Origin: Megasphaera elsdenii DSM 20460
GTDB taxonomy: Bacteria; Bacillota; Negativicutes; Veillonellales; Megasphaeraceae
Assembly (NCBI RefSeq): GCF_003010495.1
Contig: NZ_CP027570.1
Coordinates: 690,001-722,000 of the forward strand
Length of the DNA: 32,000 bases
Direction of reading: 5' to 3'
A program made the translations under genes and the position numbers. The notes below the pieces were generated by a model. That model was given only the letters and a program-made list of their open reading frames with translations. It ran no database searches and was not told the origin of the DNA. The number at the start of each line of letters is the position of its first letter. The stretch's first letter is position 1. Below are positions 1 to 24,449 of the stretch, one piece after another.

Positions 1-537
1 TTCATCGAGTGCCATGCGGGTAACATAGCCTTCGGTCATTTCCAGATACCGCGTGCCTTTCGCTTTCGTACCGAACATGGTACCGGTCTGGCTGCGCAGG
101 CCTTTGCCGAGGTCGTCCAGGCTGGCGCCGATGGGGAGGCCGCCTTCGGAGAAGGCTGTCTGGGTACGGCCGTATACAATCTGGAGGAAGAGCTGGCGCA
201 TAGCCACGTTGATAGCATCGCAGACCAAGTCTGTATTGAGGGCTTCAAGAAGCGTTTTGCCCGGAAGGATTTCCGAAGCCATAGCAGCAGAATGAGTCAT
301 GCCGGAACAGCCGATGGTTTCAACGAGGGCTTCTTCAATGATGCCGTCTTTGACATTGAGTGTCAATTTGCAGGCACCCTGCTGCGGAGCACACCAGCCT
401 ACGCCATGGGTCAAGCCGCTGACATCTTTGATTTCCTTTACCTGTACCCATTCGCCTTCTTCCGGAATCGGGGCCGGTCCGTGATATGCGCCTTTCGTGA
501 CGGGACACATATTCTTAACTTCTGTTGAATATAACAT
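1..537 (-). CDS. NifU/IscU-like Fe-S scaffold-domain protein, N-terminal part (3' end runs off the left edge)
   Basis: Absent from the ORF track because it has no stop in the window. ATG at 537 (minus) follows an AAAGGGTGAAGAG RBS and the frame stays open to base 1 (179 codons). My translation MLYSTEVKNMCPVTKGAYHGP...GWCAPQQGACKLTLNVKDGIIEEALVETIGCSGMTHSAAMASEILPGKTLLEAL resembles the IscU/NifU N-domain core. Confidence 0.6.
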   Translation of the reverse strand, partial: MLYSTEVKNMCPVTKGAYHGPAPIPEEGEWVQVKEIKDVSGLTHGVGWCAPQQGACKLTLNVKDGIIEEALVETIGCSGMTHSAAMASEILPGKTLLEALNTDLVCDAINVAMRQLFLQIVYGRTQTAFSEGGLPIGASLDDLGKGLRSQTGTMFGTKAKGTRYLEMTEGYVTRMALDE

Positions 538-591
538 GTTCTCTTCACCCTTTCAAAATGTATGAGAAATAAAAAGCAGCACGTATAAGAC

Positions 592-1461
592 TCAGTCCTT
601 CAACTGGTCGTATATCTGTGTGAATAAAGCGCGATACATGCTGCCTTTGCGCCACAAGAATGAAAATGCGTGCATGACGGAGAAATCCTTGACGACGATG
701 CGTCGCAGCGTCCCGTCTGCCAGTTCTTTCTGAACTGATGTTTCATATAAAAATGCAATACCGCAGTCACGGCAGGCCAGTCCTTTGACGGCCGACAGGC
801 TGCCCACTTCATAGCGGGCCGGGAAATGGTCCAGTGTGTAGCCCTGTTCTGCCAGCTTATGTTCCAAGATCCGGCGGGCGCCGGCATGGCGTTCGCGGAC
901 GATGATCCGATAGCGCATGAGTTCTGACAGCGTCATTTCTTCCGGAGCTTCATAGCCCGTACCGCAGACAGCGACAATCGGTTCATTAGAAAATAAGAGC
1001 GATTCATAGCGTCCCTGGTCAAAAGAACTTTCGACAATGGCAAAATCAATGGCGCCATCGTCCAGGGACTGGAGCAGCTTTTCCGCATCCGCAATTTCCA
1101 TGCGAAGATTCATATCGTCATTATGCTTGAGCAAGTCAGCCAATTTATCGAGAATCCCCACGCCAGCTGTCGGCGTCGCCCCAAAGGTCAGGGAGCGATT
1201 GTGCTGCAGGTCGCGAAGATGCTCTTTTAAGATGGCATCGTCATGACTGATGGCAGTCACGGCATTCCAAAGGATGTGCCCAGCCTGGGTCAATTGCAGA
1301 TGTTTTCCCTTATAACTGAAAAGCTTGGTCCCGTATTCGCGTTCCAAGTAGCGAATATGCTGAGAAACGGCAGGCTGTGTGATGTGAAGTTCCGCAGCAG
1401 CCCGGGTATAATTCATGTGACGGCAAACGCACAAAAATGTATGGATACGAAAATCTAACAT
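592..1461 (-). CDS. LysR-family transcriptional regulator
   Basis: ORF 592..1491. The N-terminal HTH is FLCVCRHMNYTRAAAELHITQPAVSQHIRYLEREYGTKLF and the C-terminus is LysR substrate-binding type. I place the start at ATG 1461 (MLDFRI), which has an AAGGGAAGGGTG RBS; the track ATG at 1491 has none. Confidence 0.9.
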   Translation of the reverse strand: MLDFRIHTFLCVCRHMNYTRAAAELHITQPAVSQHIRYLEREYGTKLFSYKGKHLQLTQAGHILWNAVTAISHDDAILKEHLRDLQHNRSLTFGATPTAGVGILDKLADLLKHNDDMNLRMEIADAEKLLQSLDDGAIDFAIVESSFDQGRYESLLFSNEPIVAVCGTGYEAPEEMTLSELMRYRIIVRERHAGARRILEHKLAEQGYTLDHFPARYEVGSLSAVKGLACRDCGIAFLYETSVQKELADGTLRRIVVKDFSVMHAFSFLWRKGSMYRALFTQIYDQLKD

Positions 1462-1597
1462 AGCACCCTTCCCTTTCTTTGCGTTTTCCATAAGATAATT
1501 TTATGATATTTCAAAATTTTTATCAAGAAAAAAGTGGGCATTTTTCGTATACGTATGGGACGTCTTTGCTCCCAGTATAGTTTTACCCCTGCCTTCA

Positions 1598-1606
1598 TGA
1601 TATAAT
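1598..1606 (+). promoter_or_regulatory. Extended -10 promoter element (TGATATAAT) for the 1653 gene
   Basis: TG at 1598-1599 and TATAAT at 1601-1606, about 45 nt upstream of ATG 1653. No good -35 was found. Confidence 0.4.
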
Positions 1607-1652
1607 AGGACAAACGATTAACCTATTTTACGATAAGGAAGGATGGATTCTC

Positions 1653-2129
1653 ATGAAAAAAATGACGACGCTCTGTGCGTCCCTGCTCCTGGCCCTGGGC
1701 TGCCTGACAGCCAACGCCATGGATTCCCAGACCCTGGTCAGCAACCCCGGCCGTTACCGCGTCATCAGCACCAGTCCGGACGGCATCGCCTATGCCGATA
1801 TGGATTCCCTCCGGGCCATGCAGACCATGGACTATCCCAACAGCATCGAAAACATGAGCTTTACGTTGTATGTCGAAAAATATGCCGGCATCCGCGATGA
1901 CCTAATCTTCCAGCTTGGCCAGGAAATCCACCAAATCAACGAATACAAAGCGGCCCTGCACGCCAACAAGCGCGAGGGGACATATGACTTGAACGCTGAC
2001 CTGACAAATGTCTATCATACCGACGGAACGGCGTACTCTGTCAAAATCGACACGGTCCAGTTCCAGAACATCCGCGACATGTACACGGCCCTGCACCACT
2101 TCGCCGCCCTCATGCCGCAGAAGAATTAG
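1653..2129 (+). CDS. Small exported protein of unknown function (signal peptide)
   Basis: GGAAGGA RBS. The N-terminus MKKMTTLCASLLLALGCLTANA-MDS has a basic n-region, a hydrophobic core and an ANA cleavage site. I recognise no family. Confidence 0.7.
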   Translation: MKKMTTLCASLLLALGCLTANAMDSQTLVSNPGRYRVISTSPDGIAYADMDSLRAMQTMDYPNSIENMSFTLYVEKYAGIRDDLIFQLGQEIHQINEYKAALHANKREGTYDLNADLTNVYHTDGTAYSVKIDTVQFQNIRDMYTALHHFAALMPQKN

Positions 2130-2160
2130 TGGTTCGTGGCTAGTGGCTCGTAGTGGCTCT
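2127..2160 (+). repeat. G/T-rich heptamer array R1 (GTGGTTC GTGGCTA GTGGCTC GTA GTGGCTC)
   Basis: Tandem GTGGYTM units start at the stop codon of the 1653 gene. It shares the 13-mer GTGGTTCGTGGCT and the 9-mer TGGCTCGTA with the array at 5690-5730. Confidence 0.6.
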
Positions 2161-2237
2161 CCTTATAGGAGAGCTGTCAGCGAAGCTGACTGAGAGGTTG
2201 CTCTATCAACGTAGTTTGTAGAAAAGGCTAACCACTT

Positions 2238-2270
2238 AAAAGGACTTGTTGCACGCGACAAGTCCTTTTT
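2238..2270 (+). terminator. Rho-independent terminator (usable in both directions)
   Basis: AAAGGACTTGT-tgcacgcg-ACAAGTCCTTTTT: a perfect 11-bp stem flanked by an A-run and a T-run. Confidence 0.65.
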
Positions 2271-2296
2271 GAGTTTCCTCCGGCCCGCAGCTATTG

Positions 2297-2302
2297 TATA
2301 AT
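2297..2302 (+). promoter_or_regulatory. Candidate -10 box (TATAAT) for the three-gene cassette
   Basis: TATAAT lies 45 nt upstream of ATG 2347. The -35 is weak (TTTCCT at 17-nt spacing). Confidence 0.3.
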
Positions 2303-2346
2303 AGAGGCAAGTGAATCTTTATTATATAAAACGAAAGGGACCTGAC

Positions 2347-3144
2347 ATGACGAACGAAAAATATATGAATATGATCCGCAACAATCCCTATGTAATCGAC
2401 CGCATCGAAAACCCGACGGAAGAAATGCAGCTCCTGGCTGTCCAGATGAACGGCCTGGCCCTGCAATACATCAAACATCCGTCAGAAGCGGTCCAGAAAG
2501 CCGCCGTCGCCAATACGGCCCGGGCCATCCAATTCATCGACCATCCGTCGGAAGACATGCTCCTGCAAGCGGTCCGCGCTGGCTGGAACAACCTGAGTTA
2601 TATCGAAAATCCGTCACCGGAACTCATCGACGCCGCCCTGGACCAGTCGGGCTGGGCCATCAAATACGTCAAAGACCCGGACGAAGCCCTGCAGCTGCGG
2701 GCTGTAGAAAAGAATTACGACGCCATCAAATACATCAAGCATCCGACACCGGCCGTCCAGCTGGCCGCCATCCGCGGCAACTACGAAGCCCTGCGCTACA
2801 TCGAAAAGCCGACGGAAGAAGCAAAAGAACTGGCCATCAGCGAAAACGAACAGGCCATCCGCCTCATCCCGAATATCAGCAAAGAGGAATTTCTCCACTA
2901 TCTCAGCCGCAACGTCCTGGTCAGCAAATACATGCCCAAGGGCATTTCCCTGACCCCTGACGATTGGCGCAATACCTTCAAGGCCGTCTTGTCCCGGGAC
3001 GATGTACCGGAAGACTATGTCCGCAACTTCATCACCTGCAACGCCGTCGATCTGACACCGGCCGATAAAGTCCTCCTCGTCGACGATTGCGGCAGCAAGA
3101 AGGCCCGCCGTATTACAGTAGATGAAAAATTGACGTTGAAATAG
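2347..3144 (+). CDS. Tandem-repeat (DUF4116-like) alpha-solenoid protein
   Basis: ORF 2311..3144. I start it at ATG 2347 (GAAAGGGA RBS). It holds eight phased 22-aa repeats of the form A(I/L)xYIxxP(S/T)xExxxxAVxxN, for example NGLALQYIKHPSEAVQKAAVAN, followed by a unique ~85-aa tail. Confidence 0.8.
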   Translation: MTNEKYMNMIRNNPYVIDRIENPTEEMQLLAVQMNGLALQYIKHPSEAVQKAAVANTARAIQFIDHPSEDMLLQAVRAGWNNLSYIENPSPELIDAALDQSGWAIKYVKDPDEALQLRAVEKNYDAIKYIKHPTPAVQLAAIRGNYEALRYIEKPTEEAKELAISENEQAIRLIPNISKEEFLHYLSRNVLVSKYMPKGISLTPDDWRNTFKAVLSRDDVPEDYVRNFITCNAVDLTPADKVLLVDDCGSKKARRITVDEKLTLK

Positions 3145-3154
3145 GAGAGAAACC

Positions 3155-4231
3155 ATGAACTTTACAGATACTTTCAAAAGCGTAGAATTAGTCCTCAAAG
3201 CCGGTGAAGTCCCACTTCTCGTCGGCGAAACGGGCATCGGCAAGACCTCCCTGGCCCGGGAACTGGCTGCCAAGAATGACTGGAGCCTGGTCGGCATCGA
3301 CGGCAACCTCCTCAAAGAAGGGGAAATCGGCGGCCTGCCTACGGTCGAAGCGGGCACGACGATTTATGCCGTCCACCACAAGCTCCGCAAAATCGACGAA
3401 GAAATCGCCAAGGGCCGGACAGTCCTCTTGTTCATCGACGAAATCAACCGCTGCGACCACGCCGTCCAGCAGGAACTGATGAACCTCATCCTCAACCGTG
3501 AAATCAACGGCTACGTCTTGTCGCCGTCGGTCCATATCATCGCCGCCATGAACCCGGCCGATTCCTATGACTACGAAGTCGTTGAAATGGATGCAGCCCA
3601 GCAGAACCGCTTCGTCTGGCTGTACATGGAAGCCGATTACCTGCAGTGGCTCGATTGGGCCTCGACGGCAGGCATTGAAGAAAAGGTCATGGAATTTATT
3701 TCCACCTTCCCGGAATACCTGGACAAGACCAACGAAGACGACATCAATGCCACGCCGCGCAGTTACGAACGCATTTCCAAACTGTACCACATCTATAAAC
3801 AGGACCCGTCGGCCATCCCGCAGGGCGTCTTCTACAACGTCATCCGCGGCAACGTCGGCAAGCTCATCGCTCAGGAATTCGTCCATTTCGTCACGTCCGA
3901 CGCCCAGCCCCTCATCGCTTATGACGATGTCTTCGGCAGTCCATCCCTGGATCCGACCCTGTCCAGCCGGGTCAACAGTGAAAGCCACACCCGGCTCTAC
4001 CTGGCTGCCAAGAACATCCTCAAGCAGCTGGAACATGCCATCCGCCTCGATGACAGCGAAGCTCAGCCGCTCCTTTCCCGCCTGGTCGCCTTCCTGGCGC
4101 TCTATCCCGTCGATCTGCGCCTCGGCGTCATGAAGGACATGAAAGCCGCCAACCCCAAAGTCTATGCCTGCGCTCTGGATAACGACGACTTCATCGACAG
4201 CTACTTCGCAGCTTTCCGGTCCCTTCGGTAA
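3155..4231 (+). CDS. MoxR-type (AAA_5) AAA+ ATPase
   Basis: AGGAGAG RBS. Motifs are Walker A GETGIGKT, Walker B LLFIDEINR, sensor-1 IIAAMNP and QQNRF. It is a single AAA module plus a helical C-terminal domain. Confidence 0.9.
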   Translation: MNFTDTFKSVELVLKAGEVPLLVGETGIGKTSLARELAAKNDWSLVGIDGNLLKEGEIGGLPTVEAGTTIYAVHHKLRKIDEEIAKGRTVLLFIDEINRCDHAVQQELMNLILNREINGYVLSPSVHIIAAMNPADSYDYEVVEMDAAQQNRFVWLYMEADYLQWLDWASTAGIEEKVMEFISTFPEYLDKTNEDDINATPRSYERISKLYHIYKQDPSAIPQGVFYNVIRGNVGKLIAQEFVHFVTSDAQPLIAYDDVFGSPSLDPTLSSRVNSESHTRLYLAAKNILKQLEHAIRLDDSEAQPLLSRLVAFLALYPVDLRLGVMKDMKAANPKVYACALDNDDFIDSYFAAFRSLR

Positions 4232-4237
4232 ACGCCT

Positions 4238-5644
4238 ATGGAACAATCACTGCCCATTGCGGCTAACCTCCTCTATCAGCAGGCATCTATCGTCGCCGAC
4301 GCCGTCCTCGCCGAGCAGCGCCGGACTGGCAGCGTCCCGGATGTGCCGGCCGATTTCCAAAAGAAATTCTACACCTTCCTGGACCGCATCAACGGCCACC
4401 TCATGGAAGACAAAGACAATTTCTTCGGCTATTTTCTCTTCCAAATGGTCAAGGAAATCCGCTTTGACATGGCCTCGCCGACAGGGACCAACTTCAAGGG
4501 GACGCGGTACCACCTCTATTTCAATCCCATGCTGTTCCTGCCCCTGTCGCCGGAACAGATGGAGAGCACGATTAAGCATGAAATCCTCCACGTCGTCTCC
4601 CTCCACCTCATCCGGTCCAAAGAACTCCGGCAGCAATACAGCAAAATGGCCGTCAACCTGGCCATGGACGTCGTCGTCAACACCTATCTCGACCACCTGC
4701 CGCCCTTCTCGACGACCCTGGAATGGGTGAACATGAACTATTCCCTGCTCCTGAATCCCTTTGAAAGCCTGGAATATTACGTCGATAAGATTCAAGGCGC
4801 CCTGGACTTGCGGACCGACAAAAAAGACCTGCCCGAATCGGACAGCGACTCCGACGAATCCATTGCCGTATCCTACGACCCGGCTAAGACCCACGACTTA
4901 TGGGACGAAGGCGATGATATCGACGAAGAGACGCTGCGCAAATTCACGGAAAAATACATCGACGCTTCGTGCAAGGGCGAGCTGTCGAATTATCTGGAAA
5001 GCATGATCAAAGCCTTGAAAGACAGTCAGGAAGACCTGCCCTGGCATTGGTACTTGAAAAAGCTCGTCGGCTCCGTCACCAGCACCTGGAAGCGGACGAC
5101 CATGCGCCGCAACCGCCGCCAGCCGGAACGGCTGGACCTGCCGGGCTGCCTGCGCTCCCATACGGCCAAAATCCTCATCGGCCTGGACATCAGCGGCAGT
5201 ATCACCGATGCCGAATTTCGTCAGGCCATCGGCGAAGTCCTGCACCTGGTCCGCTGCTATAACCATGAAATCATCGTCGCCGAATGTGACGACGAAATAC
5301 GCCGCACCTACCGCATCCGCACCATGGACGACGTCCGCGGCCGCCTGGACATCCGCGGCGGCACGGCCTATTCCCCGGTCTTCACCTACGCCAATACCCA
5401 GCGCGTCGACCTCGTCGTTTACTTCACCGACGGCAAAGGCGAAGAAAAACTCCAGACACCGCCCAAAGGCTACAAAGTCCTCTGGGTTCTCTCGGGTAAG
5501 GGAGACAAACTCTCTCTGAAGAAGCCCTTCGGCCTGGTCAAACGACTGACCAAGCTCCCGGAATACGACCCGTCCCTCGACTTCGACGACGTAGAAAAAG
5601 GCGGCTTCTCCATGAATCACCAGGAAGACATCAGTATGCCGTGA
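4238..5644 (+). CDS. Putative metallopeptidase (HExxH, DUF2201_N-like) fused to a vWA domain
   Basis: HEILH at aa 114-118, an acidic linker ESDSDSDES, and a vWA MIDAS DISGS at aa 317-321 followed by GGTAY and FTDG. It starts 6 nt after the ATPase stop, which suggests translational coupling, and has a weak RBS. Confidence 0.9.
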   Translation: MEQSLPIAANLLYQQASIVADAVLAEQRRTGSVPDVPADFQKKFYTFLDRINGHLMEDKDNFFGYFLFQMVKEIRFDMASPTGTNFKGTRYHLYFNPMLFLPLSPEQMESTIKHEILHVVSLHLIRSKELRQQYSKMAVNLAMDVVVNTYLDHLPPFSTTLEWVNMNYSLLLNPFESLEYYVDKIQGALDLRTDKKDLPESDSDSDESIAVSYDPAKTHDLWDEGDDIDEETLRKFTEKYIDASCKGELSNYLESMIKALKDSQEDLPWHWYLKKLVGSVTSTWKRTTMRRNRRQPERLDLPGCLRSHTAKILIGLDISGSITDAEFRQAIGEVLHLVRCYNHEIIVAECDDEIRRTYRIRTMDDVRGRLDIRGGTAYSPVFTYANTQRVDLVVYFTDGKGEEKLQTPPKGYKVLWVLSGKGDKLSLKKPFGLVKRLTKLPEYDPSLDFDDVEKGGFSMNHQEDISMP

Positions 5645-5654
5645 ATAAAAGATA

Positions 5655-5689
5655 AAAAGGCGCTGTCACAGGAAGACAGCGTCTTTTTT
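5655..5689 (+). terminator. Rho-independent terminator of the cassette
   Basis: GGCGCTGTC-acaggaa-GACAGCGTC followed by TTTTTT, beginning about 15 nt after the stop at 5644. Confidence 0.8.
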
Positions 5690-5730
5690 GAGTGGTTAGT
5701 GGTTAGTAGCTCGTGGTTCGTGGCTCGTAA
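5690..5730 (+). repeat. G/T-rich heptamer array R2 (GTGGTTA GTGGTTA GTAGCTC GTGGTTC GTGGCTC GTA)
   Basis: It starts directly after the terminator T-tract (TTTTTTGA-GTGG...). It is in direct orientation with R1 and shares GTGGTTCGTGGCT (5713-5725 versus 2129-2141). Confidence 0.6.
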
Positions 5731-6237
5731 AGGCCTGCCATTATACCCGAATGGGCCGTGGTAAAATCTCACAGCGGGCCGCCTTCCAGGACGGCCCCTA
5801 CGTATACGGCCGCTGGCCGTGTATTTTTTGCGACCGGCGACCGGCCGCCTGCGTTTATTTTTTCATCGCCTGTATGCGATTCCGTAGGGGACGCCTGTTA
5901 AGGCGTCCAGCCTCTGCTGTCCGTTTTGGCAACCGTCTTGCGCCTTCCGCTGGTCGGCACCTGCCGGGCCAAAAAGGCCGCGTGAATCCTGTGAATGAAC
6001 GGAATTTATGACAGATGTCACATGGTCGTAATACAATCAATGAGTCTGTTGCGGCGAAACGCCGCATCCGTAGGGGCCGCCCAGATTTTTTCTGGTCTGT
6101 CCAGTACAGGATAGTCCCCGGACGGACAGTTGCAGCGGGCGGCCCGCTACGCGCTGAGGGGTTCCCGAAGTGTCGTTGTCACTTTGAGTCTGTCGCGGTG
6201 CAGCCGCATCTGAGTCCGAAAAAAAAAGCCGTAAACT

Positions 6238-7650
6238 TTAGAAATGGAAGTCCATCTGGGTGCGGACGAGGGTCCGTTTATTATCTGAATTGGAAATCTG
6301 TTCCTGTTTCGAGTAGAGCGTTTCCCATTCGATGTTCTTCCAAGGCACGTATTTATACCCCAAAATCCAGCCTTTACTGCCGGCACTGCCATTGTAAAAC
6401 AAGGAACTCCATTCGTCGTCACCGGCGATGGTGCCATTGGTTCCGTAACGATACCAGCGGGCATAGGCCTGCCATGTTCCCGGTTTCTGGAGATCCGTAT
6501 TGCCATAGTTCAGGCGCAAGAACGTACTGTTGTCCTGGTAGTCAGCGTTGGTCTGGACATAGTCAGCCAGGAAGCGTACTTTCTTGGAAAGGTCGAACCA
6601 GCCACTGAGAACGTAAGCTTTATCGTAATCGACCGTTTCTTCACCCCATGATTCCAGATGACTCGTATTCTTTTCGTAAACATCGCCTTTATGCTTGGAA
6701 TTCAAGGCATAGGCTACGTTGATGCCGGCCCGCGGTCCGATATTCCCCCACGTACCAAGGCCATACCAGCTTTCATGGTTGCCGGCCCCTGTCGAAGCAA
6801 ACCAGAAGCCGCTGGCAGTCAGACTGGTCCCTTTGATGGGGACGCCGAGCTGGAAGCCATCGGATTCCGTGCCGAAGAGGACGTTCTGCTGACCTAAGCC
6901 GCGCCAGGCACGGCCGATGTTGATCCAGGCGCCGGTCTTCGGATCCGTCCCTTCGACCCAGATACGCTGGATATCGCCATCATGACCAGACCAGCGTTTG
7001 GCCCGGCCCTTATCTTTGCCGTCAGTCGCCCATGACCCCGACTCGTTTTCATGGTCATGACCGCCGTTGTAAAAGGAGTTCTTTTCTAACTGGAATTTGG
7101 CCTTCCAATTATCGTTGACTTTATAGGAACCGTTCAAGCTCATATAGAAGCGGTCATTGTCCTTATATAAATCACTGTTGTTCTGTACATTGTTGCTATA
7201 TTTATCGTGGTCATACTGGACGCGGATAAAGCCGCTCAATTCCATCTTGCCAGCGATACCGTTTTTCAGCGAATCGATATCCTTGGTATTCTGCTCGATC
7301 TGCTTGGTGTTCTTGGCGACTTGCTGCTGCAGGACGTTGATTTCGTCGGCGTATTCTGCGTGCAGTTTTTCCAGGACCGTCTTATCGCCGAAGTTGCCGC
7401 CGCCTTTTTGCATGGCTTTGGCGACGATACTGGCGACTTCGTAACGGGTCATGGTACGGCCACCTTCAAAGGTGCTGTTGCCCATGCCTTCGATGACACC
7501 TTCTTTAGCCAGGTAGTCCAAGGCTTCATAAGACCAGTGGTCTTTGGGGACATCGGAGAAACTGTCGGCCGATGCCGCCAGAGCCGCGCCCGACATGCCC
7601 AGGCTCAGGGCCAGCAGGACGGCAAAGCCTTTCTTGTTGAATTCCATCAT
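6238..7650 (-). CDS. OmpM-type outer-membrane porin with N-terminal SLH domain
   Basis: Signal peptide MMEFNKKGFAVLLALSLGMSGAALA. The SLH motif is FSDVPKDHWSYEALDYLAKEGVIEG, followed by a coiled-coil segment (LHAEYADEINVLQQQVAKNTKQIEQNTKDI). The C-terminus is rich in aromatic/Gly beta-strands and ends in F. Confidence 0.9.
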   Translation of the reverse strand: MMEFNKKGFAVLLALSLGMSGAALAASADSFSDVPKDHWSYEALDYLAKEGVIEGMGNSTFEGGRTMTRYEVASIVAKAMQKGGGNFGDKTVLEKLHAEYADEINVLQQQVAKNTKQIEQNTKDIDSLKNGIAGKMELSGFIRVQYDHDKYSNNVQNNSDLYKDNDRFYMSLNGSYKVNDNWKAKFQLEKNSFYNGGHDHENESGSWATDGKDKGRAKRWSGHDGDIQRIWVEGTDPKTGAWINIGRAWRGLGQQNVLFGTESDGFQLGVPIKGTSLTASGFWFASTGAGNHESWYGLGTWGNIGPRAGINVAYALNSKHKGDVYEKNTSHLESWGEETVDYDKAYVLSGWFDLSKKVRFLADYVQTNADYQDNSTFLRLNYGNTDLQKPGTWQAYARWYRYGTNGTIAGDDEWSSLFYNGSAGSKGWILGYKYVPWKNIEWETLYSKQEQISNSDNKRTLVRTQMDFHF

Positions 7651-7663
7651 AAGGACCTCTTTT

Positions 7664-8443
7664 CTATAAATTATCTTCCAGCATGGCCCCTACGCTGTCA
7701 TAGACTTTGCGTGCCTGTTCCTGGATGGCCGGACGGGCCGTGGCGACGGTGTAGCCGTTATAGCCCAGAATCATGGGCAGGTCGTTGATTTCGTCGCCAA
7801 TGGCCAGGATGTCCGCACCGTCCCAGCCAAAGAGGGAGAGCGTGTGGGCAATGGCCTGTTGTTTACTGATATCGGAGGGAATGATGTCGACGGCGCAGCG
7901 GTTGGGATAAGCGTGGACAACGTCGCCGAAATGGGCATTGACCTGTTCGCTGGCCGCCAGGGCATCGTCAGGATTAGTGAAGCCCAGGGAATACTGGTGG
8001 ATTGTCTGAGGCAGGTGTTCAATGTCGTCTTCCGTCACCGGTACGATGGGATAATCCCATTCTTTCGCTTCCCGCCAGACCCAGGTACCCGGCAGATCAT
8101 GGCAGAGGTAGGTCCGGTCCTGCGAGGAAAAGGAAAAATGGAAGGACTTACGGACCCGTTCCAGTTTGCTGACGGCCTTGAGGACAGCCGGCTCGATGCG
8201 GGCTTCCCAGAGGACGCGTTCCTGGTCATCGCTGATGAGACCGCCATTATTGCAGGCCAGGTAGTCGTATTCGACGCCATAATGCTTGAGCTGGGGCATG
8301 AGCATGCCGTGGTCCCGGCCGGATACGACGCCGAATTTATGGCCTGCAGCCCGCCATTTGCGGATGGCTTCGGCATCACGGGCCGTAATGATATCGTCGC
8401 GGAACAAGGTCCCGTCATAATCGCTGGCAGCAACTTTTAACAT
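7664..8443 (-). CDS. HAD-superfamily (Cof-type, IIB) sugar phosphatase
   Basis: Motif I is SDYDGTL and motif IV is GDEINDLPM. I start it at ATG 8443 (MLKVAASDYDGT) behind a GAGGAGGAG RBS; the track start at 8458 overlaps the upstream stop. Confidence 0.85.
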   Translation of the reverse strand: MLKVAASDYDGTLFRDDIITARDAEAIRKWRAAGHKFGVVSGRDHGMLMPQLKHYGVEYDYLACNNGGLISDDQERVLWEARIEPAVLKAVSKLERVRKSFHFSFSSQDRTYLCHDLPGTWVWREAKEWDYPIVPVTEDDIEHLPQTIHQYSLGFTNPDDALAASEQVNAHFGDVVHAYPNRCAVDIIPSDISKQQAIAHTLSLFGWDGADILAIGDEINDLPMILGYNGYTVATARPAIQEQARKVYDSVGAMLEDNL

Positions 8444-8454
8444 AGTACTCCTCC

Positions 8455-10122
8455 TCATAACCGATAGACGACGGCTTCCGCCGGGCGCAGTCTGCCGGCT
8501 TCCGGGGCGCCATAGCTGCCCAGAAGGACCGTTGCGCCGTCCGTAAGGGACGCGTCATACTCGATGGTTTCGTTGGTAAAATTGACCAGCGTCAATGTCG
8601 CCTGGTCGTCTAAAATGCGCTTAAAAGCGTAAATGCGTTCGTCATCAGCCAGCAATTCTTCGTAGCGCCCTTGCTGCAATATGGCCGCCGCTTCCCCGTT
8701 GAAGCGTTCTGCCTGTATGCGGCGATAGTACTGGAGAACCGAATCGGCATCGGCTTCTTCCCCTTCGGCACAGCACTGCGGGTAATCGTCATGGACCGGG
8801 AGCCACGGTGTCCCCGTCGTAAAACCGGCCTGGGGAGCCGTCGTCCACTGCATAGGCGTCCGGGCATTGTCGCGGCTGTGGGCCTGGACGAGACGCAGGG
8901 CCTCTGCCGGCGCAAAGCCTTCGTCCAAAGCCAGCTGATACTGGCCGTGCGTCGAAATATCATTGTAGTCTTCGATGCGGGCAAAGGCCGTATTGGCCAT
9001 GCCCAGTTCCTGCCCTTCATAGATGAAAGGCGTACCGCGCAGGGTAAACAAGATGGTCGCCATGGCCTTGGCCGCCTTCTGCTTATCCGTCCCTTCGGGG
9101 AAATAGCGGTTGACACAACGTATCTGGTCGTGGTTCTCGAAGAAAATGGGATACCAGCCGTTGGCTGCCGTCGCCTGCTGGCTGTCGGACAGGGCCTTCT
9201 TGAGCTTGGTCAGGGGCCACGTTTCGGCCCGGTACCAGACTTCATCATCGGGAAATTCCAGATTCGTATGGCTGAACTCGAAGAGCATACTGAAGGCCCC
9301 GTCCTTGCCGACCCAGCGGGGCAGGTCGGCCGGCGTGACGCCATTGGCTTCGGCGACGGTGAAGATATCGTGGCCGTCGAAGACGTTGCGGCGAAATTCG
9401 TGGAGAAAATCGAGGATGCCCGGCGTATTGGCAATCATCTTGTGGATAGACGACAGGCCATCGGCGCCGTCGACCGGGCCGTCGGCCAAGACGGCCGGTT
9501 TCTTGATGTAGACGATGGCATCGATGCGGAAGCCGCCGACGCCTTTATCGATCCAGAAATTGGCCGCATCATAGAGGGCCTGGCGGACGGCCGGATTCTC
9601 CCAATTCAAATCGGGCTGTTCGACGGCGAAGGTGTGCAGGTAATACTGCTGCCGTTCTTCGCACCACGTCCAGGCCGGGCCGCCGAAGATAGAGCGCCAG
9701 TTCGTCGGCGCCGAACCGTCCTCTTTGGCATCGCGCCAGATGTACCAGTCGGCCTTGTCGTTAGTGCGGCTGCGTTTCGATTCCTGGAACCAGGCGTGCC
9801 GGTCCGACGTATGGTTATAGACCAGGTCCATGACGATGCGGATATCCCGCTTCTTCCCTTCGGCAATGAGGGTATCCATATCAGCCATCGTGCCATAGCG
9901 CGGGTCGATGGCCGTATAGTCGCTGATGTCATAGCCGTTGTCGACCATAGGCGACGGGTAGACCGGCGTCAGCCAGATGGCGCCGACGCCGAGTTTCCGG
10001 AGATAATCCAGGTGACGCGTCACGCCGGGAATATCGCCTTCGCCGCTGCCCGTCGTGTCCTGGAAGCTGCGGGGGTAAATCTGATAGACAGCCGTCTGCT
10101 GCCACCATTTCAAGGTATCCAT
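8455..10122 (-). CDS. GH13 alpha-glucosidase (oligo-1,6-glucosidase / trehalose-6-phosphate hydrolase family)
   Basis: Motifs QIYPRSFQD, DNGYDISDY, VMDLVYNHTS, GFRIDAI (nucleophile Asp), TVAEANG and FFENHDQIR. AGGAGG RBS. Exact substrate cannot be called from sequence. Confidence 0.9.
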   Translation of the reverse strand: MDTLKWWQQTAVYQIYPRSFQDTTGSGEGDIPGVTRHLDYLRKLGVGAIWLTPVYPSPMVDNGYDISDYTAIDPRYGTMADMDTLIAEGKKRDIRIVMDLVYNHTSDRHAWFQESKRSRTNDKADWYIWRDAKEDGSAPTNWRSIFGGPAWTWCEERQQYYLHTFAVEQPDLNWENPAVRQALYDAANFWIDKGVGGFRIDAIVYIKKPAVLADGPVDGADGLSSIHKMIANTPGILDFLHEFRRNVFDGHDIFTVAEANGVTPADLPRWVGKDGAFSMLFEFSHTNLEFPDDEVWYRAETWPLTKLKKALSDSQQATAANGWYPIFFENHDQIRCVNRYFPEGTDKQKAAKAMATILFTLRGTPFIYEGQELGMANTAFARIEDYNDISTHGQYQLALDEGFAPAEALRLVQAHSRDNARTPMQWTTAPQAGFTTGTPWLPVHDDYPQCCAEGEEADADSVLQYYRRIQAERFNGEAAAILQQGRYEELLADDERIYAFKRILDDQATLTLVNFTNETIEYDASLTDGATVLLGSYGAPEAGRLRPAEAVVYRL

Positions 10123-13350: not shown

Positions 13351-13381
13351 AAAAAGGCGGCCCATCATGCAGGGCCTTTTT
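13351..13381 (-). terminator. Terminator after the hexokinase gene
   Basis: On the minus strand: AAAAGGCCC-tgcatgat-GGGCCGCCTTTTT, immediately after the stop at 13381-13383. Confidence 0.6.
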
Positions 13382-14625
13382 CAAAGTTTGTAGCACGAAA
13401 GCGCCGCAGCGATGGCGGCTCCTACGGACGCACCGTTGCTGTTGGGGGCTACATGGATGCGGGTATTTTCAGTCGGTGCCATGCAGAAGATGCAGATAGC
13501 ATCTTCGATGAGGGACGGCACCCCTTTGATCTTTTCGACCAGGCTGCCTTCGATGGCGATGGACTGTTCCGTAACCCCCTTCCCCTGAGCCAGGTGGCTG
13601 AGGATCCCGAAGCTGGCCGCCCCGATGAGCCGGGCTGCCCGGGCAAAGACAGCCCGAACCAGGGCACAGAGCCATTCTTGTTCTTCCTCACTGACGGCAA
13701 ATCCCAGGATAGCTTCGGCCGTCTTCTGACCGGAAATGAGTTCGTTCATATCGCGCGTCGTGAACTCAGGAATCGCCTTTTTAAGGTATTCACCAAAGAC
13801 GGCACGGCAGACTTCGCTCAAATACCGGCCGCCAATCATCTTTTCAAAGGGATGGTCTCCAGGCTGCTGGGACGCTTCATCGACGAGGCGGTCCCAGACT
13901 GTCGCCGGGGCGCCATCGAAGCCGGCCGCTTCCAGGTTGACGATCATCTGCAGGGCCGGTTCATAATAACACATGTTGAAACCCGTGCCGCAGACGATGC
14001 CGATATGCGACGGGTTATGCTGATAAACAGAAGATAACAGGGTCGCCGTCGTATCGTTGAGCAGGGCCACCGGTTCGATGCGGTCCAGGCCGGCCCGGAC
14101 CAGGGCTTCTTTCAGCAGGCCGTTGATGGGCTTGCCAGCGACGCCGGGAACGGCGATTTCCTTAGACCAGGCGATGAGACGGGCATCCTTAGCTGACGTC
14201 TGGTCAACAGCAAAAGAAAAGGTAAAGCCCAATTTATAGTCCTGATTGCCATCAGCCGCTTCTTTGACGATGGCGGCGATGAAATCGAAGAGTTCTTCTG
14301 CCGTCGTCGATGAACAGGTATAGTCATAGTCGGCACATTTCAAGGGTTTGGCCACCTTACGTTCTACGACAAAGCCCTGTTCTCCCATAAGGCGGATGCG
14401 CGAAGCCCGGACATTGGTACCGCCGAAATCCAGGGCTAAGAACGTCCCCATTTCCCGTCCCGTCGGCAAGCCCAGATAGGTGCGCAGGGCAGAAAGGGAA
14501 CTCGACTTCCCGGCCAAGGCGTCTTCAGCGTCCTTCCGGAAGTGCTGTGCTAGTTCCCGCAGTTCCGCGCCGGATAGCTGCAAAGCCTGTCTCATTGATT
14601 CCCAATTTTTTATCGTGTCTGCCAT
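13381..14625 (-). CDS. Hexokinase-family (eukaryote-type) sugar kinase
   Basis: Hexokinase signatures are LALDFGGTNVR, LGFTFSF, WSKEI, LLNDTTATLL and GIVCGTGFN. I start it at ATG 14625 (MADTIKN) with an AGGAGG RBS. Confidence 0.85.
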   Translation of the reverse strand: MADTIKNWESMRQALQLSGAELRELAQHFRKDAEDALAGKSSSLSALRTYLGLPTGREMGTFLALDFGGTNVRASRIRLMGEQGFVVERKVAKPLKCADYDYTCSSTTAEELFDFIAAIVKEAADGNQDYKLGFTFSFAVDQTSAKDARLIAWSKEIAVPGVAGKPINGLLKEALVRAGLDRIEPVALLNDTTATLLSSVYQHNPSHIGIVCGTGFNMCYYEPALQMIVNLEAAGFDGAPATVWDRLVDEASQQPGDHPFEKMIGGRYLSEVCRAVFGEYLKKAIPEFTTRDMNELISGQKTAEAILGFAVSEEEQEWLCALVRAVFARAARLIGAASFGILSHLAQGKGVTEQSIAIEGSLVEKIKGVPSLIEDAICIFCMAPTENTRIHVAPNSNGASVGAAIAAALSCYKL

Positions 14626-14777
14626 AATTATCGGCCTCCTGTCTGTACGCAAAAACATCTATACTCCCATGATAATGAAAAAAGCCCGTAAAGACAATGC
14701 CTTTACAGACTTTCGGTTCCGCGACACGACAATGGATGGTAGTACAAAATATGGATATTGGTACAGGCGCTGCGCGC

Positions 14778-14994: not shown

Positions 14995-15070
14995 TGGTGG
15001 GCGATAACAGGATCGAACTGCTGACATCCTGCTTGTAAGGCAGGCGCTCTCCCAGCTGAGCTAATCGCCC
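14995..15070 (-). tRNA. tRNA-Val (UAC)
   Basis: Reverse complement: GGGCGATTAGCTCAGCTGGGAGAGCGCCTGCCTTACAAGCAGGATGTCAGCAGTTCGATCCTGTTATCGCCCACCA. Anticodon loop CTTACAA; CCA is encoded. Confidence 0.92.
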
Positions 15071-15073
15071 AAG

Positions 15074-15149
15074 TGGTGACCCCTACGGGATTTGAACCCA
15101 TGTTCTCGCCGTGAAAGGGCGATGTCTTAGACCGCTTGACCAAGGGGCC
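15074..15149 (-). tRNA. tRNA-Glu (UUC)
   Basis: Reverse complement: GGCCCCTTGGTCAAGCGGTCTAAGACATCGCCCTTTCACGGCGAGAACATGGGTTCAAATCCCGTAGGGGTCACCA. Anticodon loop CTTTCAC. Confidence 0.92.
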
Positions 15150-15164
15150 ACGTAATGTGGAATG

Positions 15165-15240
15165 TGGTGATCCACCCGAGATTCGAACTCGGGACACCCT
15201 GATTAAAAGTCAGGTGCTCTGCCAACTGAGCTAGTGGATC
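15165..15240 (-). tRNA. tRNA-Lys (UUU)
   Basis: Reverse complement: GATCCACTAGCTCAGTTGGCAGAGCACCTGACTTTTAATCAGGGTGTCCCGAGTTCGAATCTCGGGTGGATCACCA. Anticodon loop CTTTTAA. Confidence 0.92.
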
Positions 15241-15244
15241 ATAA

Positions 15245-15319
15245 TGGCAGGGGTAGTAGGATTCGAACCTACGGATGACGGAGTCAGAGTCCGTTGCCTT
15301 ACCGCTTGGCGACACCCCT
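15245..15319 (-). tRNA. tRNA-Gln (CUG)
   Basis: Reverse complement: AGGGGTGTCGCCAAGCGGTAAGGCAACGGACTCTGACTCCGTCATCCGTAGGTTCGAATCCTACTACCCCTGCCA. Anticodon loop CTCTGAC. Confidence 0.9.
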
Positions 15320-15322
15320 GTA

Positions 15323-15398
15323 TGGCTCCTCAAGTAGGACTCGAACCTACGACAAATCGGTTAACAGCCGATTGCTCTACCAACTGAGCTATTGAGGA
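15323..15398 (-). tRNA. tRNA-Asn (GUU)
   Basis: Reverse complement: TCCTCAATAGCTCAGTTGGTAGAGCAATCGGCTGTTAACCGATTTGTCGTAGGTTCGAGTCCTACTTGAGGAGCCA. Anticodon loop CTGTTAA. Confidence 0.92.
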
Positions 15399-15403
15399 AT
15401 AAA

Positions 15404-15478
15404 TGGAGCGGAAAACGAGACTCGAACTCGCGACCCCCACCTTGGCAAGGTGATGCTCTACCACTGAGCTACTTCCGC
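15404..15478 (-). tRNA. tRNA-Gly (GCC)
   Basis: Reverse complement: GCGGAAGTAGCTCAGTGGTAGAGCATCACCTTGCCAAGGTGGGGGTCGCGAGTTCGAGTCTCGTTTTCCGCTCCA. Anticodon loop TTGCCAA. Confidence 0.92.
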
Positions 15479-22313: not shown

Positions 22314-22982
22314 TTATAAAGTAAATAGGAATCGGTATAAGTCTTGATGGATGGCCTCGGGCGTGCGCATGGCCCCGTCTTTTGTGCAGGCGATGCGCTG
22401 CCAGTGATAGCGTTCAGCCAGTTCGTCATAGGCGGCATGGCATTTGGCCAGGAAGCCCTCGTTCTTTTCGTGGATATCGCCGGTCTGTCCGCCGGTCTTG
22501 CCTGTCCGGTCCGCCATGAGCCGTTCCGTGACGGCCAGGGGAACGTCGAGCAGGAAGACCTTATCCGGGGCAGGCAGGCCCATTTTATGGAACTCAAAGT
22601 CTTCCAGCCAGGACAGATAGGCCCGGCGCTGGTCCGGGTCGTCGATCTTAATCATCTGATAGAGCATGTTACTCGTCGTATAGCGGTCGGCAATGACGAT
22701 ACCGCCTTGTTCATAAAAAGCCTTCCATTTCATCTGATACGATGCGAAGCGGTCGACGGCAAAAAAGGCCGACGCCGCATAGGGATTGACGGCGTCGGCA
22801 TCGCTGCCGAAATCGCCGCGCAGGTACATCTTGACCAGGGCGCTGGAATCGCTGTCATAGTCGGGATAGCTGACGGATTTCACGTCATAGCCGTCGCACT
22901 GCAAGTGTTCCGTCAGCAGCCGGGTCTGCGTCGCCTTGCCGCTGCCGTCGCCGCCTTCGATGATGAATAATTTACCTTTCAT
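22314..22982 (-). CDS. tmk: dTMP (thymidylate) kinase
   Basis: P-loop FIIEGGDGSGKATQ and DRY motif ADRYTTSN. GGAGGAG RBS. It overlaps the upstream gene by 11 nt. Confidence 0.95.
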   Translation of the reverse strand: MKGKLFIIEGGDGSGKATQTRLLTEHLQCDGYDVKSVSYPDYDSDSSALVKMYLRGDFGSDADAVNPYAASAFFAVDRFASYQMKWKAFYEQGGIVIADRYTTSNMLYQMIKIDDPDQRRAYLSWLEDFEFHKMGLPAPDKVFLLDVPLAVTERLMADRTGKTGGQTGDIHEKNEGFLAKCHAAYDELAERYHWQRIACTKDGAMRTPEAIHQDLYRFLFTL

Positions 22983-24441
22983 GGAACTCCTCCTTCAAGA
23001 CGCGGATCGTCGCCAAGGTTCCATCGGCCGGGCCGTTCGGCTTATAGCCATGGGCCATCTTTTGGCGGATATAGTCCTGGCAGGCTGCCGTAATTTCTTC
23101 GCCTAAAGTCAGGACCGGGATGCCTGGCGGATAAAAGGTCACATTTTCCACGGCGATGCGGCCGCGTGCCTCAGTGAAAGGCACGGCTTCTACGGGGCAG
23201 TTCCAGGCCTGGCGCGGCGCCATGACGACCTGCGGCGCCGGCAGGGCCTGTTCCCGGACCGTTCCGGCCGGGCAGAGACGGCGGCCTTGGGCAATCGTCC
23301 GGCAGGCCTCGACCAGGGCCTGGGCCGTTTCTTCCGTATCGCCCAGAGTAATCAGGGCCAGGACGTGATTGCCAGCGATGAGTTCCACTTCGAGGCCCTG
23401 CTGACGCAAGGCCCGTTCAGCCGTCACGCCGTCGAGGCCGATGCCGGAAAAGTCGATGGTAATCTTCGTTTCATCGAAGCCGCTGACGACTTTTCCGTCG
23501 ATGATTTCCCGTCCAAAAACGGTCAGTCCGGGAATCGCACGGATGGCATCCCGCACCGACCGGGCCAGTTCGAGGGCCCGGCCAATGAGACTGGGGCCTT
23601 CCAGAGCCAGCTGCTGGCGGGCGCTGTCCAGGGAAGCCAGGAACCAGTAATGGGGGCTCGTCGACTGGACGACAGCCATCGACGCGGCGACGCGGTCCGT
23701 CAGGGGAAAGTCCTTGCGGCAGTGCAGCATCGACGTCTGGGTCAGGGAACCGGCCATCTTATGGGTGCTCTGGGCGACGCAGTCGGCACCGCAGGCCAGG
23801 GCTTCTGCCGGCAAATCCCCGTGGAAGCCCAGATGGGCGCCATGAGCTTCGTCGACGAGGACATACAGGCCTTGTTCATGAGCATAGGCTGCCAGTGCCT
23901 TCAGGTTGCCGGCGATGCCATCGTAGGTCGGATAGGTGAAGACGGCGGCTTTCGCCCGGGGATGGGCTGCAACGGCTTTCTTCAAGCTGTCCAGGTCCGG
24001 TCCCAGCGACACTTGCCGGACCGCATCGAAGCGGCTTTCCAGGTAGACCGGGACGGCGCCGCTCAAGACCAGGCCATTGATGACGCTCTTATGGGCCTCG
24101 CGGGGAATGAGGATTTCATCGCCATCGCCGCAGACAGCCAGGATCATGGCTTCGATACAGGCCGTCGTGCCGTTGATGGAAAAGAAAGTCCGCCCGGCAC
24201 CATAGAGGTCAGCTGCCAGGTCCATGGCTTCCTTCAGGGCTCCTCCCGGCTGGAATAAGTCATCCAGGGCATACATGACGCCCAAATCCCGCCGCAGGGC
24301 ATCGCCAAAGAGGCTGGCCTGATAGGCGGAAATGCCCTGTCCCAATTTGTGTCCCGGCGTATGATAGGCCTTCAGGTGCTGCTGGCAGTACCCTTCCAGG
24401 GCTTCGACAAAAGGCGCCCGTTCCTGTTTCTTCCTGTCCAT
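22972..24441 (-). CDS. PLP-dependent Orn/Lys/Arg decarboxylase-family protein (YaaO-like)
   Basis: The PLP-Lys context is STHKMAGSLTQ. Major and C-terminal decarboxylase domains are present. Its position upstream of tmk matches Bacillus. I start it at ATG 24441 (GAGGTG RBS). Confidence 0.85.
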   Translation of the reverse strand: MDRKKQERAPFVEALEGYCQQHLKAYHTPGHKLGQGISAYQASLFGDALRRDLGVMYALDDLFQPGGALKEAMDLAADLYGAGRTFFSINGTTACIEAMILAVCGDGDEILIPREAHKSVINGLVLSGAVPVYLESRFDAVRQVSLGPDLDSLKKAVAAHPRAKAAVFTYPTYDGIAGNLKALAAYAHEQGLYVLVDEAHGAHLGFHGDLPAEALACGADCVAQSTHKMAGSLTQTSMLHCRKDFPLTDRVAASMAVVQSTSPHYWFLASLDSARQQLALEGPSLIGRALELARSVRDAIRAIPGLTVFGREIIDGKVVSGFDETKITIDFSGIGLDGVTAERALRQQGLEVELIAGNHVLALITLGDTEETAQALVEACRTIAQGRRLCPAGTVREQALPAPQVVMAPRQAWNCPVEAVPFTEARGRIAVENVTFYPPGIPVLTLGEEITAACQDYIRQKMAHGYKPNGPADGTLATIRVLKEEFHER

Positions 24442-24449
24442 AGGGCACC

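Follow-up and report, generated by a model that had tools for sequence, protein, structure and literature searches.

A conserved three-gene unit of anaerobic Firmicutes links a DUF4116 solenoid to a MoxR-like ATPase and a zincin-vWA fusion protein

Background

Several well-described couples consist of an AAA_5/MoxR-like motor and a partner whose vWA domain carries a metal ion-dependent adhesion site (MIDAS): NorQ/NorD, CbbQ/CbbO, CoxD/CoxE, RavA/ViaA, BchI/BchD, CobS/CobT and Midasin/Rea1. They probably act by capture of an acidic residue at the MIDAS, followed by ATP-driven remodelling of the captured protein. A couple of this composition, accompanied by a third gene, is described here from a stretch of 32,000 nucleotides of Megasphaera elsdenii DSM 20460 (assembly GCF_003010495.1, contig NZ_CP027570.1, positions 690,001 to 722,000 of the forward strand), referred to below as the window, to which all positions refer. 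The three genes, g1, g2 and g3, encode in this order an alpha-solenoid of DUF4116 repeats, an AAA_5/MoxR-like ATPase and a fusion of a zincin-type peptidase domain with a vWA domain. Unlike the characterised chaperone couples, the trio possesses a conserved zincin domain in its vWA protein (g3) and has no neighbouring client enzyme.

Ternary conflict systems built around MoxR-vWA pairs, of the VMAP, iSTAND, FtsH and beta-propeller types, were described by Kaur, Burroughs, Iyer & Aravind in 2020 (PMC7159879). These systems share with the trio a MoxR-type ATPase, a vWA/MIDAS protein with a possible N-terminal peptidase and a mostly alpha-helical third protein. The third component of the trio, however, is a DUF4116 solenoid, variable effector domains are absent, and neither rapid diversification nor a defence-island context is seen, with the sole exception of one distant locus (L248, see below). 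The hosts also differ, being multicellular actinobacteria, cyanobacteria and deltaproteobacteria in the former case and anaerobic Firmicutes in the latter.

Homologues of the g2/g3 pair are present in phages, namely gp24/gp25 of N4 (Schitoviridae; PHROG 1297 and PHROG 1314) and the pairs of PBS1/AR9 and group 2.2 jumbo phages. N4 gp24 and gp25, both of unknown function, are part of a core set of 14 genes in N4-like phages (PMC4193335); in jumbo phages the MoxR and metallopeptidase-vWA pair was noticed by Iyer et al., whose suggestion was that it serves virion assembly (PMC7824862). The phage pairs differ from the trio in sequence (22-35 % identity), in the lack of a DUF4116 gene and in their location among replication and transcription genes. 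As for the third component, DUF4116 proteins occur in bacteria, protists, giant viruses and jumbo phages; g1 resembles them in passing the Pfam threshold and in being an alpha-solenoid, and is set apart by its 22-residue register, a clade-specific conserved cap and its locking into an operon with an ATPase/vWA pair.

The literature searched on DUF2201, DUF4116 and COG3864 contained nothing functional and no characterised pathway, in agreement with a preliminary description of the window, made from the sequence alone, according to which the DUF2201-type branch is not known to have an experimentally defined function. The conserved DUF4116 three-gene unit and its distribution did not appear in that literature either. 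The components and the two-gene pair were already known bioinformatically; the DUF4116-linked three-gene unit appears to be new.

Distribution of the three-gene unit

With each GTDB species represented by a single genome, the genome scan gave 80 loci, with g3 identities of 52-98 %, and a metagenome scan seeded with a divergent clade provided 80 additional loci. The order g1-g2-g3 was collinear in all 77 genome loci with enough upstream sequence and in all 54 metagenome loci with room for it, including those whose g3 is only 32-38 % identical to that of the window. The trio spans Negativicutes, Peptostreptococcaceae, Desulfitobacteriaceae and Clostridium sensu stricto. Hosts in the genome scan include Megasphaera, Pelosinus, Sporomusa, Anaerospora, Dendrosporobacter, Desulfosporosinus, Desulfitobacterium, Clostridioides, Romboutsia, Paraclostridium and Gracilibacter, and the divergent clade corresponds by its source names (C. 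tetani, C. tertium, C. lundense and others) to Clostridium sensu stricto.

Five more distant g3 clades were sampled with one locus per clade. In L248 a 339-aa protein with six DUF4116 repeats (Pfam, 2.6e-57) overlaps or abuts the start of the ATPase gene, in L244 a 446-aa DUF4116 protein (4.4e-18) is encoded two genes upstream, and in the three other clades the upstream genes were unrelated. The part recurring in the distant clades is the DUF4116 repeats, not the tail of g1. The preliminary description had made its proposal depend on the retention of g1 beside the ATPase/vWA pair in other genomes; this retention is confirmed by both scans, and DUF4116 partners were found in two further clades.

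The L248 trio (DUF4116, AAA and DUF2201, in 1-9340) has a GmrSD type IV restriction gene on one side and Abi_2 on the other; a weak HEPN match lies nearby, and this is the only defence-like context seen. Two other DUF4116 proteins, of 454 aa (L250-L253; P0351 and P0373), are encoded on phage-like or conjugative-element-like contigs without the ATPase/vWA pair and adjoin ART-PolyVal polyvalent-protein domains, DNA methylases and a type IV secretion system coupling protein.

Domain composition and conserved residues

The sole Pfam family matched by g1 was DUF4116 (PF13475; 36.5 bits, cut-off 24.9, E 3.6e-9). In the AlphaFold2 (AF2) model (predicted local distance difference test score, pLDDT, 94.2) nine helix hairpins of 22 residues (residues 3-195) are followed by a five-helix C-terminal cap (204-263), and the gene itself has a 66-nt periodicity (repeat families D1-D3). 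The solenoid and its unique tail had been recognised in the preliminary description, whose count of eight repeats is to be replaced by nine hairpins and a five-helix cap. The solenoid shape agrees with a published contact-based model of DUF4116 (PMC8078820). Comparison of the g1 model with the PDB gave no significant fold match, the top one being importin-alpha (E 0.09). Residues W80, G102-W-A, D125, P133, Y224, K241, G249, D259 and L262 are invariant, and the cap ends in the motif G249-S-x-x-A-x-x-x-x-V-D259-x-x-L262, conserved in 139 homologues. Solenoids are typical scaffolds for the binding of peptides or proteins, and the best reading of g1 is that of an adaptor or a substrate. Asp259 could, by analogy, be one candidate ligand of a MIDAS; the analogous cases are the Rea1 MIDAS with Rsa4 and CbbO with Rubisco.

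The g2 protein was assigned to AAA_5 (46.2 bits, cut-off 22, E 5.8e-12). Its score against AAA_3, the model of MoxR proper, was 23.1 bits, below the cut-off of 27, and g2 is therefore MoxR-like in a broad sense and outside MoxR proper; the earlier designation as a MoxR-type AAA+ ATPase stands with this restriction. The solved structures closest to the g2 family profile were the AAA domains of Midasin/Rea1 (PDB, 6.5e-10). No equivalog was found in NCBIfam for g1, g2 or g3, and no NorQ, CbbQ, CoxD or chelatase model scored above its cut-off.

The motif residues of g2 were judged by alignment over 28-136 homologues. Invariant were G24, G29 and K30 of Walker A (G27, I28 and T31 nearly so), L92, F93, D95 and E96 of Walker B, and, with the phage homologues included, A130, A131 and N133 of the sensor-1 region. 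The loop GNLLKEGEIGGLP is a candidate helix-2 insert or pore loop and is assumed here to resemble the MoxR motif 'DLLPSDITG'; AQQNRF presumably resembles the MoxR 'AQxDRF' box, and TPRSYER is likewise taken to resemble the MoxR SPRA box.

The g3 protein matched DUF2201_N (PF13203; 35 bits, cut-off 23.2, E 1.5e-8) and the VWA-like family DUF2201 (PF09967; 60 bits, cut-off 26.4, E about 3e-16), so the fusion of an HExxH peptidase with a vWA domain proposed at the outset was recovered in Pfam, and the profile searches placed all four domains (DUF4116, AAA_5, DUF2201_N and DUF2201) above the curated cut-offs. In the AF2 model (pLDDT 79.5) the N-terminal domain is helical, and a three-stranded sheet (strands 71-95) precedes the HExxH helix (105-120), which is the zincin topology. 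In cellular and phage homologues H114, H118 and H123 are invariant and E115 is present in at least 90 % of sequences; the identity of the third zinc ligand is a prediction. Further on, D144 is invariant in one homologue alignment and nearly so in another, in which N148 is invariant.

The acidic stretch ESDSDSDES varies in length among g3 homologues. Two conserved positions, H219 (invariant in one homologue alignment, nearly so in the other) and W222 (invariant in the former), follow this stretch and yet precede the vWA domain, so the stretch, first described as an acidic linker, is present but is a variable loop modelled with low confidence and not a simple inter-domain linker. Ten long g3 homologues contained DUF2201_N and DUF2201 only, with no Pfam domain in the extra length, and gave no Rosetta-stone fusions.

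The family hallmark directly before the first vWA strand, RRNRRQPxRxDL, has four arginines (R290, R293, R294 and R298) that are invariant, phages included. The AF2 confidence is low here (about 55-60), and the segment is a candidate for contact with the ATPase or for an autoprocessing site. The C-terminal domain resembled in Foldseek the I domains of integrins alpha-M and alpha-L and the A2 domain of von Willebrand factor (E 6e-4 to 1e-2; target-normalised TM-score of about 0.5), and its five MIDAS residues (D317, S319, S321, T376 and D398) are invariant, as expected for the intact site noted earlier. No relative of g3 was found among solved structures by sequence or profile, and no characterised relative was found either. 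The disordered C-terminal tail of g3 (5600-5623, residues 455-462) contains a short conserved motif, G(F/Y)SMNxQE, which may be a docking peptide; the main clade has it, whereas the Clostridium sensu stricto clade and the phages lack it.

Proposed mechanism

The reading preferred here, with a probability of roughly 0.4, is that the trio constitutes one autonomous operon for an adaptor-guided, ATP-driven machine that remodels and processes proteins and whose client is encoded elsewhere. The MoxR-like AAA+ ring of g2 would be the motor applying force. g3 would be its vWA cofactor, the MIDAS of which would grip an acidic residue of a partner protein, while the N-terminal zincin domain would cleave the gripped partner or a neighbouring chain. 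The g1 solenoid would connect the motor and the peptidase with their target in the cell, either as a specificity adaptor or as the regulated primary substrate. The MIDAS grip and the AAA force are taken from the analogy with Midasin/Rea1, CbbQO and related couples, and cleavage is implied as part of the cycle since the zincin site is fully conserved. Conservation was compared over 80-140 homologues, and the invariance or near invariance of all ATPase motifs, of the zincin motif and of the five MIDAS residues argues for this scheme. It is also favoured by the operon layout, the predicted folds and the likeness of the g2 profile to Midasin, by the collinearity of the trio and the DUF4116 partners in two further clades, by the lack of any other co-conserved gene, by the shared evolutionary rates and low dN/dS, and by the fixed location in a housekeeping region of M. 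elsdenii. A physical complex, peptidase activity, the role of g1 as adaptor or as substrate, and the identity of the client are what we infer.

Several points weigh against such a machine. To our knowledge, the MoxR-vWA pairs characterised so far (NorQD, CbbQO, CoxDE and RavA-ViaA) are chaperones or maturases and not proteases. The phage pairs do without a DUF4116 gene, none being present in the 71 viral loci analysed, and the core activity therefore does not depend on g1. The g1 cap has no counterpart in the DUF4116 partners of distant clades, which weakens the idea that Asp259 is a MIDAS ligand. Finally, the species-level distribution is patchy, with only 2 member sequences in the C. difficile cluster (P0112).

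Genomic neighbourhood, selection and alternative readings

A role in defence and a role in the maturation of metal centres are both less supported than remodelling and processing. In the first of these, unlikely in our estimation, the trio would serve anti-phage defence or conflict after the pattern of the systems of Kaur et al. 2020: g1 would sense an invader protein, the MoxR-vWA pair would set the threshold, and the zincin would be the effector that cleaves host or phage proteins. The architecture does parallel that of the MoxR-vWA ternary systems (PMC7159879), the g2/g3 pair is common to phages, and the trio appears rare in C. difficile; the surroundings of L248 and the mobile-element-like contigs with other DUF4116 proteins point the same way.

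The searches of PADLOC-DB 2.0, however, gave no match for g3, one chance-level match for g1 (Type II methyltransferase, E 0.017) and weak P-loop matches only for g2, the best being TRIP13 (5e-6 over 80 residues), and a known defence system was ruled out on this ground. A Pfam and PADLOC scan of 142 non-redundant immediate neighbours revealed mostly MFS transporters, MarR regulators, HAD hydrolases and metallophosphatases, with no enrichment of defence, integrase or transposase genes; defence-type matches were scattered and single (one reverse transcriptase, one type I restriction enzyme, mad1-3). Location in a defence island was thereby ruled out for this clade.

The evolution of the genes is also unlike that of arms-race genes. 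Pairwise ratios of non-synonymous to synonymous substitution rates (dN/dS) were 0.03-0.16 across g1, g2 and g3 (0.03-0.12 for g1), which indicates strong purifying selection with no fast-evolving component. In the identity matrices g1, g2 and g3 evolve faster or slower in step with one another, taxonomic families group, and cross-class identity reaches 70-85 %, Megasphaera being a long branch. In M. elsdenii the locus is fixed and syntenic in a housekeeping region, the trio being present in all eight places retrieved; chromosomes HE576794.1 and CP027569.1 carry the same locus with an identical 158-aa neighbour protein. Viral contigs, moreover, contained no close relative, the best viral match having at most 35 % identity. 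For this clade the possibility of a conflict device raised in the preliminary description was therefore not upheld, there being no defence-island context, no PADLOC match and strong purifying selection.

An equally improbable alternative is a classical MoxR-vWA maturation chaperone for a metal cofactor or enzyme complex encoded elsewhere, in which the zincin would be regulatory or would trim a pro-peptide. As far as is known, every MoxR-vWA couple studied by experiment behaves like this (they are listed in PMC7159879). The trio has kept its MIDAS and its motor motifs unimpaired, and strong purifying selection in a housekeeping-like setting would suit such a role. When the flanking open reading frames (ORFs) of the 80 genome loci were clustered, however, the only conserved genes were those of the trio (80/78/78 loci), the next most frequent cluster being present in 16 loci, all of which reflected Megasphaera synteny. 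As nothing besides the trio was co-conserved, there is no client gene in cis, and the candidate of a client enzyme in cis was rejected. In particular, no metalloenzyme or other client was co-conserved within about 7 kb in the 80 genomes, the census of the 142 neighbours showed none, and no metalloenzyme that might be a client is located near the trio in the 32-kb window, as had been noted from the beginning.

The missing NorQ, CbbQ, CoxD and chelatase equivalogs also speak against maturation, as does the presence of the pair in phages of very different hosts, which is hard to square with one host metalloenzyme. In addition, the peptidase residues equal those of the MIDAS in conservation, and this speaks for a central part of proteolysis. 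A lysine decarboxylase is an interaction partner of RavA-ViaA in E. coli, and the window has an Orn/Lys/Arg decarboxylase gene (22972-24453, - strand) some 17 kb away from the trio. In other genomes, however, the 7 kb or so around the trio contain no linked gene of this type, and the 17-kb proximity is therefore taken as a coincidence.

Phage relatives of the g2/g3 pair

The g2 and g3 proteins matched PHROG 1297 (1.7e-54) and PHROG 1314 (7e-54), respectively, over essentially the full profile length, and tblastn detected relatives of g3 in 134 phage records. Among these are proteins annotated as 'N4 gp25-like' in N4-like phages and as 'zincin-like protease fused to vWA domain' in the PBS1/AR9/Internexus jumbo phages, and in both groups a g2-homologous ATPase is encoded just upstream, in the same order as in the trio. 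In BLASTP g2 was 29 % identical to the PBS1-type phage ATPase over the full length, and its residues 1-205 were 32 % identical to the N4 gp24-like protein of LUZ7. The match of g3 to its N4-like counterpart extended over residues 66-417, and comparison of the g3 model with BFVD gave full-length phage matches (PBS1, 2e-32). The phage homologues keep the HExxHxxxxH, RRxRRQP and MIDAS motifs. PHROG 1314 and several of the phage g3 homologues are labelled 'HNH endonuclease'; since the family is a zincin-vWA fusion, this label looks wrong.

In the 71 viral loci the ATPase was present in the flank of 63 and a g1 homologue in 0. IMG/VR viral contigs yielded no relative with more than 35 % identity, and a prophage or viral location was ruled out accordingly. 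The module of ATPase and peptidase-vWA protein is old and common to cells and phages; in anaerobic Firmicutes it gained a DUF4116 solenoid, apparently more than once.

That the trio is a domesticated or remnant phage module, a captured N4 gp24/gp25-type pair with an original part in phage development (virion assembly or protein processing, on the lines of the 2021 proposal of Iyer et al. for jumbo phages) and now serving a prophage-like element or nothing essential, is very unlikely in spite of this homology to PHROG 1297/1314, to PBS1/AR9/Internexus and to N4-like gp24/gp25 and of the virion-assembly proposal for the jumbo-phage pair (PMC7824862), as phage genes for structural proteins, integrase or replication are missing from the flanks of the trio in all 80 genomes, the viral homologues are at most 35 % identical and lack g1, and purifying selection is combined with a family-level vertical signal across several Firmicutes classes.

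The interpretation of the preliminary description, in which the solenoid is an adaptor or a substrate remodelled by the ATPase and processed by the peptidase, is supported: the homologues were not found beside a specific metalloenzyme, g1 is co-conserved with the ATPase/vWA pair, and no characterised pathway includes the trio in the literature searched.

Locus organization and other features of the window

The three genes have the same orientation, with gaps of 10 nt (g1/g2) and 6 nt (g2/g3), and are enclosed by two strong hairpin terminators. Their positions are collected in Table 1; the ORFs are exactly those first reported, and the positions given earlier for Walker A, LLFIDE, AAMNP, HEILH, ESDSDSDES and DISGS all proved correct from the translations. 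The Shine-Dalgarno sequence of g2, AGGAGAG, overlaps the stop codon of g1, which suggests translational coupling. The start of g1 is ATG 2347 rather than GTG 2311, as judged by alignment of homologues.

The terminators expected on both sides were confirmed by folding. The upstream hairpin (-21.1 kcal/mol, z = -6.6) ends the preceding gene, of 158 aa, and insulates the cassette; the downstream one has -19.8 kcal/mol (z = -6.0), and in both cases 0 of 200 shuffled sequences were as stable. A simple terminator scanner gave only the minus-strand reading of the downstream hairpin. Since an A-tract precedes and a T-tract follows each stem, both hairpins can terminate transcription either way. No credible terminator was found in the interior of g1-g3. 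A promoter upstream of g1 is plausible: the TATAAT box described earlier is present, but its -35 element is poor and the consensus promoter scan made no call there. The Rfam scan of the window detected no riboswitch or leader RNA at the trio, only tRNAs elsewhere.

Table 1 Features of the three-gene unit and their positions in the window
Feature	Position	Strand	Basis or remark
Upstream hairpin terminator (A-tract, stem, T-tract)	2238..2270	+	folding; inverted repeat I11
Candidate -10 element TGTATAAT, TATAAT at 2297-2302	2295..2302	+	read from sequence
g1, 265-aa DUF4116 alpha-solenoid	2347..3144	+	Pfam PF13475, AF2
g2, 358-aa AAA_5/MoxR-like ATPase, conserved C-terminal helical region	3155..4231	+	Pfam
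Walker A GETGIGKT	3224..3247	+	sequence
Loop GNLLKEGEIGGLP after beta-2	3302..3340	+	nearly invariant, 136 homologues
Walker B LLFIDE	3425..3442	+	sequence
Sensor-1 region AAMNP (N133)	3542..3556	+	sequence
QQNRF, candidate arginine finger R152	3599..3613	+	R152, F153 invariant; role putative
TPRSYER, candidate sensor-2 arginine R202, lid domain	3752..3772	+	P201, R202, E205 invariant; role putative
g3, 468-aa DUF2201_N zincin and DUF2201 vWA fusion	4238..5644	+	Pfam, AF2, Foldseek
Zinc-binding/catalytic motif HEILHVVSLH (H114, E115, H118, H123; HExxHxxxxH)	4577..4606	+	predicted from conservation
AMDVVVN: D144, N148, candidate additional metal/active-site residues	4661..4681	+	
Variable acidic loop ESDSDSDES	4835..4861	+	pLDDT < 50 at residues 195-206
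HDLW: H219, W222, past acidic loop	4892..4903	+	
Arginine-rich family hallmark RRNRRQPERLDL, directly before first vWA strand	5105..5140	+	
MIDAS DISGS (D317, S319, S321)	5186..5200	+	invariant
MIDAS threonine T376	5363..5365	+	invariant
FTDG, MIDAS aspartate D398	5423..5434	+	T397, D398, G399 invariant
Downstream hairpin terminator, bidirectional type	5655..5689	+	folding

The other genes of the window are of the housekeeping kind: a phosphotransferase system (PTS), an RpiR regulator, hexokinase, six tRNAs, TatD, methionyl-tRNA synthetase (MetRS), RsmI, holB, a decarboxylase, BioY and a large EAL/GGDEF protein. The six tRNA genes form a cluster at 14998-15478 (- strand). The ORF at 13381-14658 (- strand) strongly matched Hexokinase_1 and Hexokinase_2, which are of the eukaryote type, and adjoins the genes of the RpiR regulator and of PTS EIICBA. 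The protein with EAL and GGDEF domains has 1562 aa and is encoded at 26556-31244 (- strand).

Short direct repeats based on a heptamer (GTGGYTMGT...) bracket the cassette outside its terminators, at 2126-2157 and 5689-5734. Five of the six matches in the 32-kb window bracket the cassette in this way, with 0.54 expected by chance. Their copy number differs among the Megasphaera loci nearest in relationship (L006-L008), and more distant Megasphaera have none of them. A recent insertion of the cassette, a candidate prompted by these repeats, was rejected, as no trio-free empty site was found, the eight M. elsdenii places all carry the trio, and the repeats are confined to the closest relatives. 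The region between g3 and the SLH gene contains GC-rich inverted repeats (I1 and I2, 5750-6238), and M. elsdenii strains differ in the length of this spacer, some (L239, L240) having about 370 bp less.

Conclusions

MoxR-vWA couples are widespread, and only for a few of them is the mechanism understood. Bacterial and phage members of the DUF2201 branch, which bears the peptidase, number in the thousands (8401 representative clusters at E up to 1e-3). The trio offers a tractable three-protein system for biochemistry and genetics and a starting point for work on the function of the DUF4116 repeat; Megasphaera elsdenii and several Clostridium species are culturable.

A bolder and more tentative proposal, somewhat unlikely as it stands, is that the trio is an unrecognised kind of split, adaptor-guided ATP-dependent protease, in which a MoxR-like ring would work with a MIDAS-zincin protein and would be steered by DUF4116 to a conserved cellular target of anaerobic Firmicutes. 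If this were true, the DUF4116 repeat would receive its first function. The two-gene core of the trio is the same module as the phage pairs, so solving the bacterial trio would explain those phage genes too and would also reveal the role of N4 gp24/gp25 and of the PBS1/AR9-type pair.

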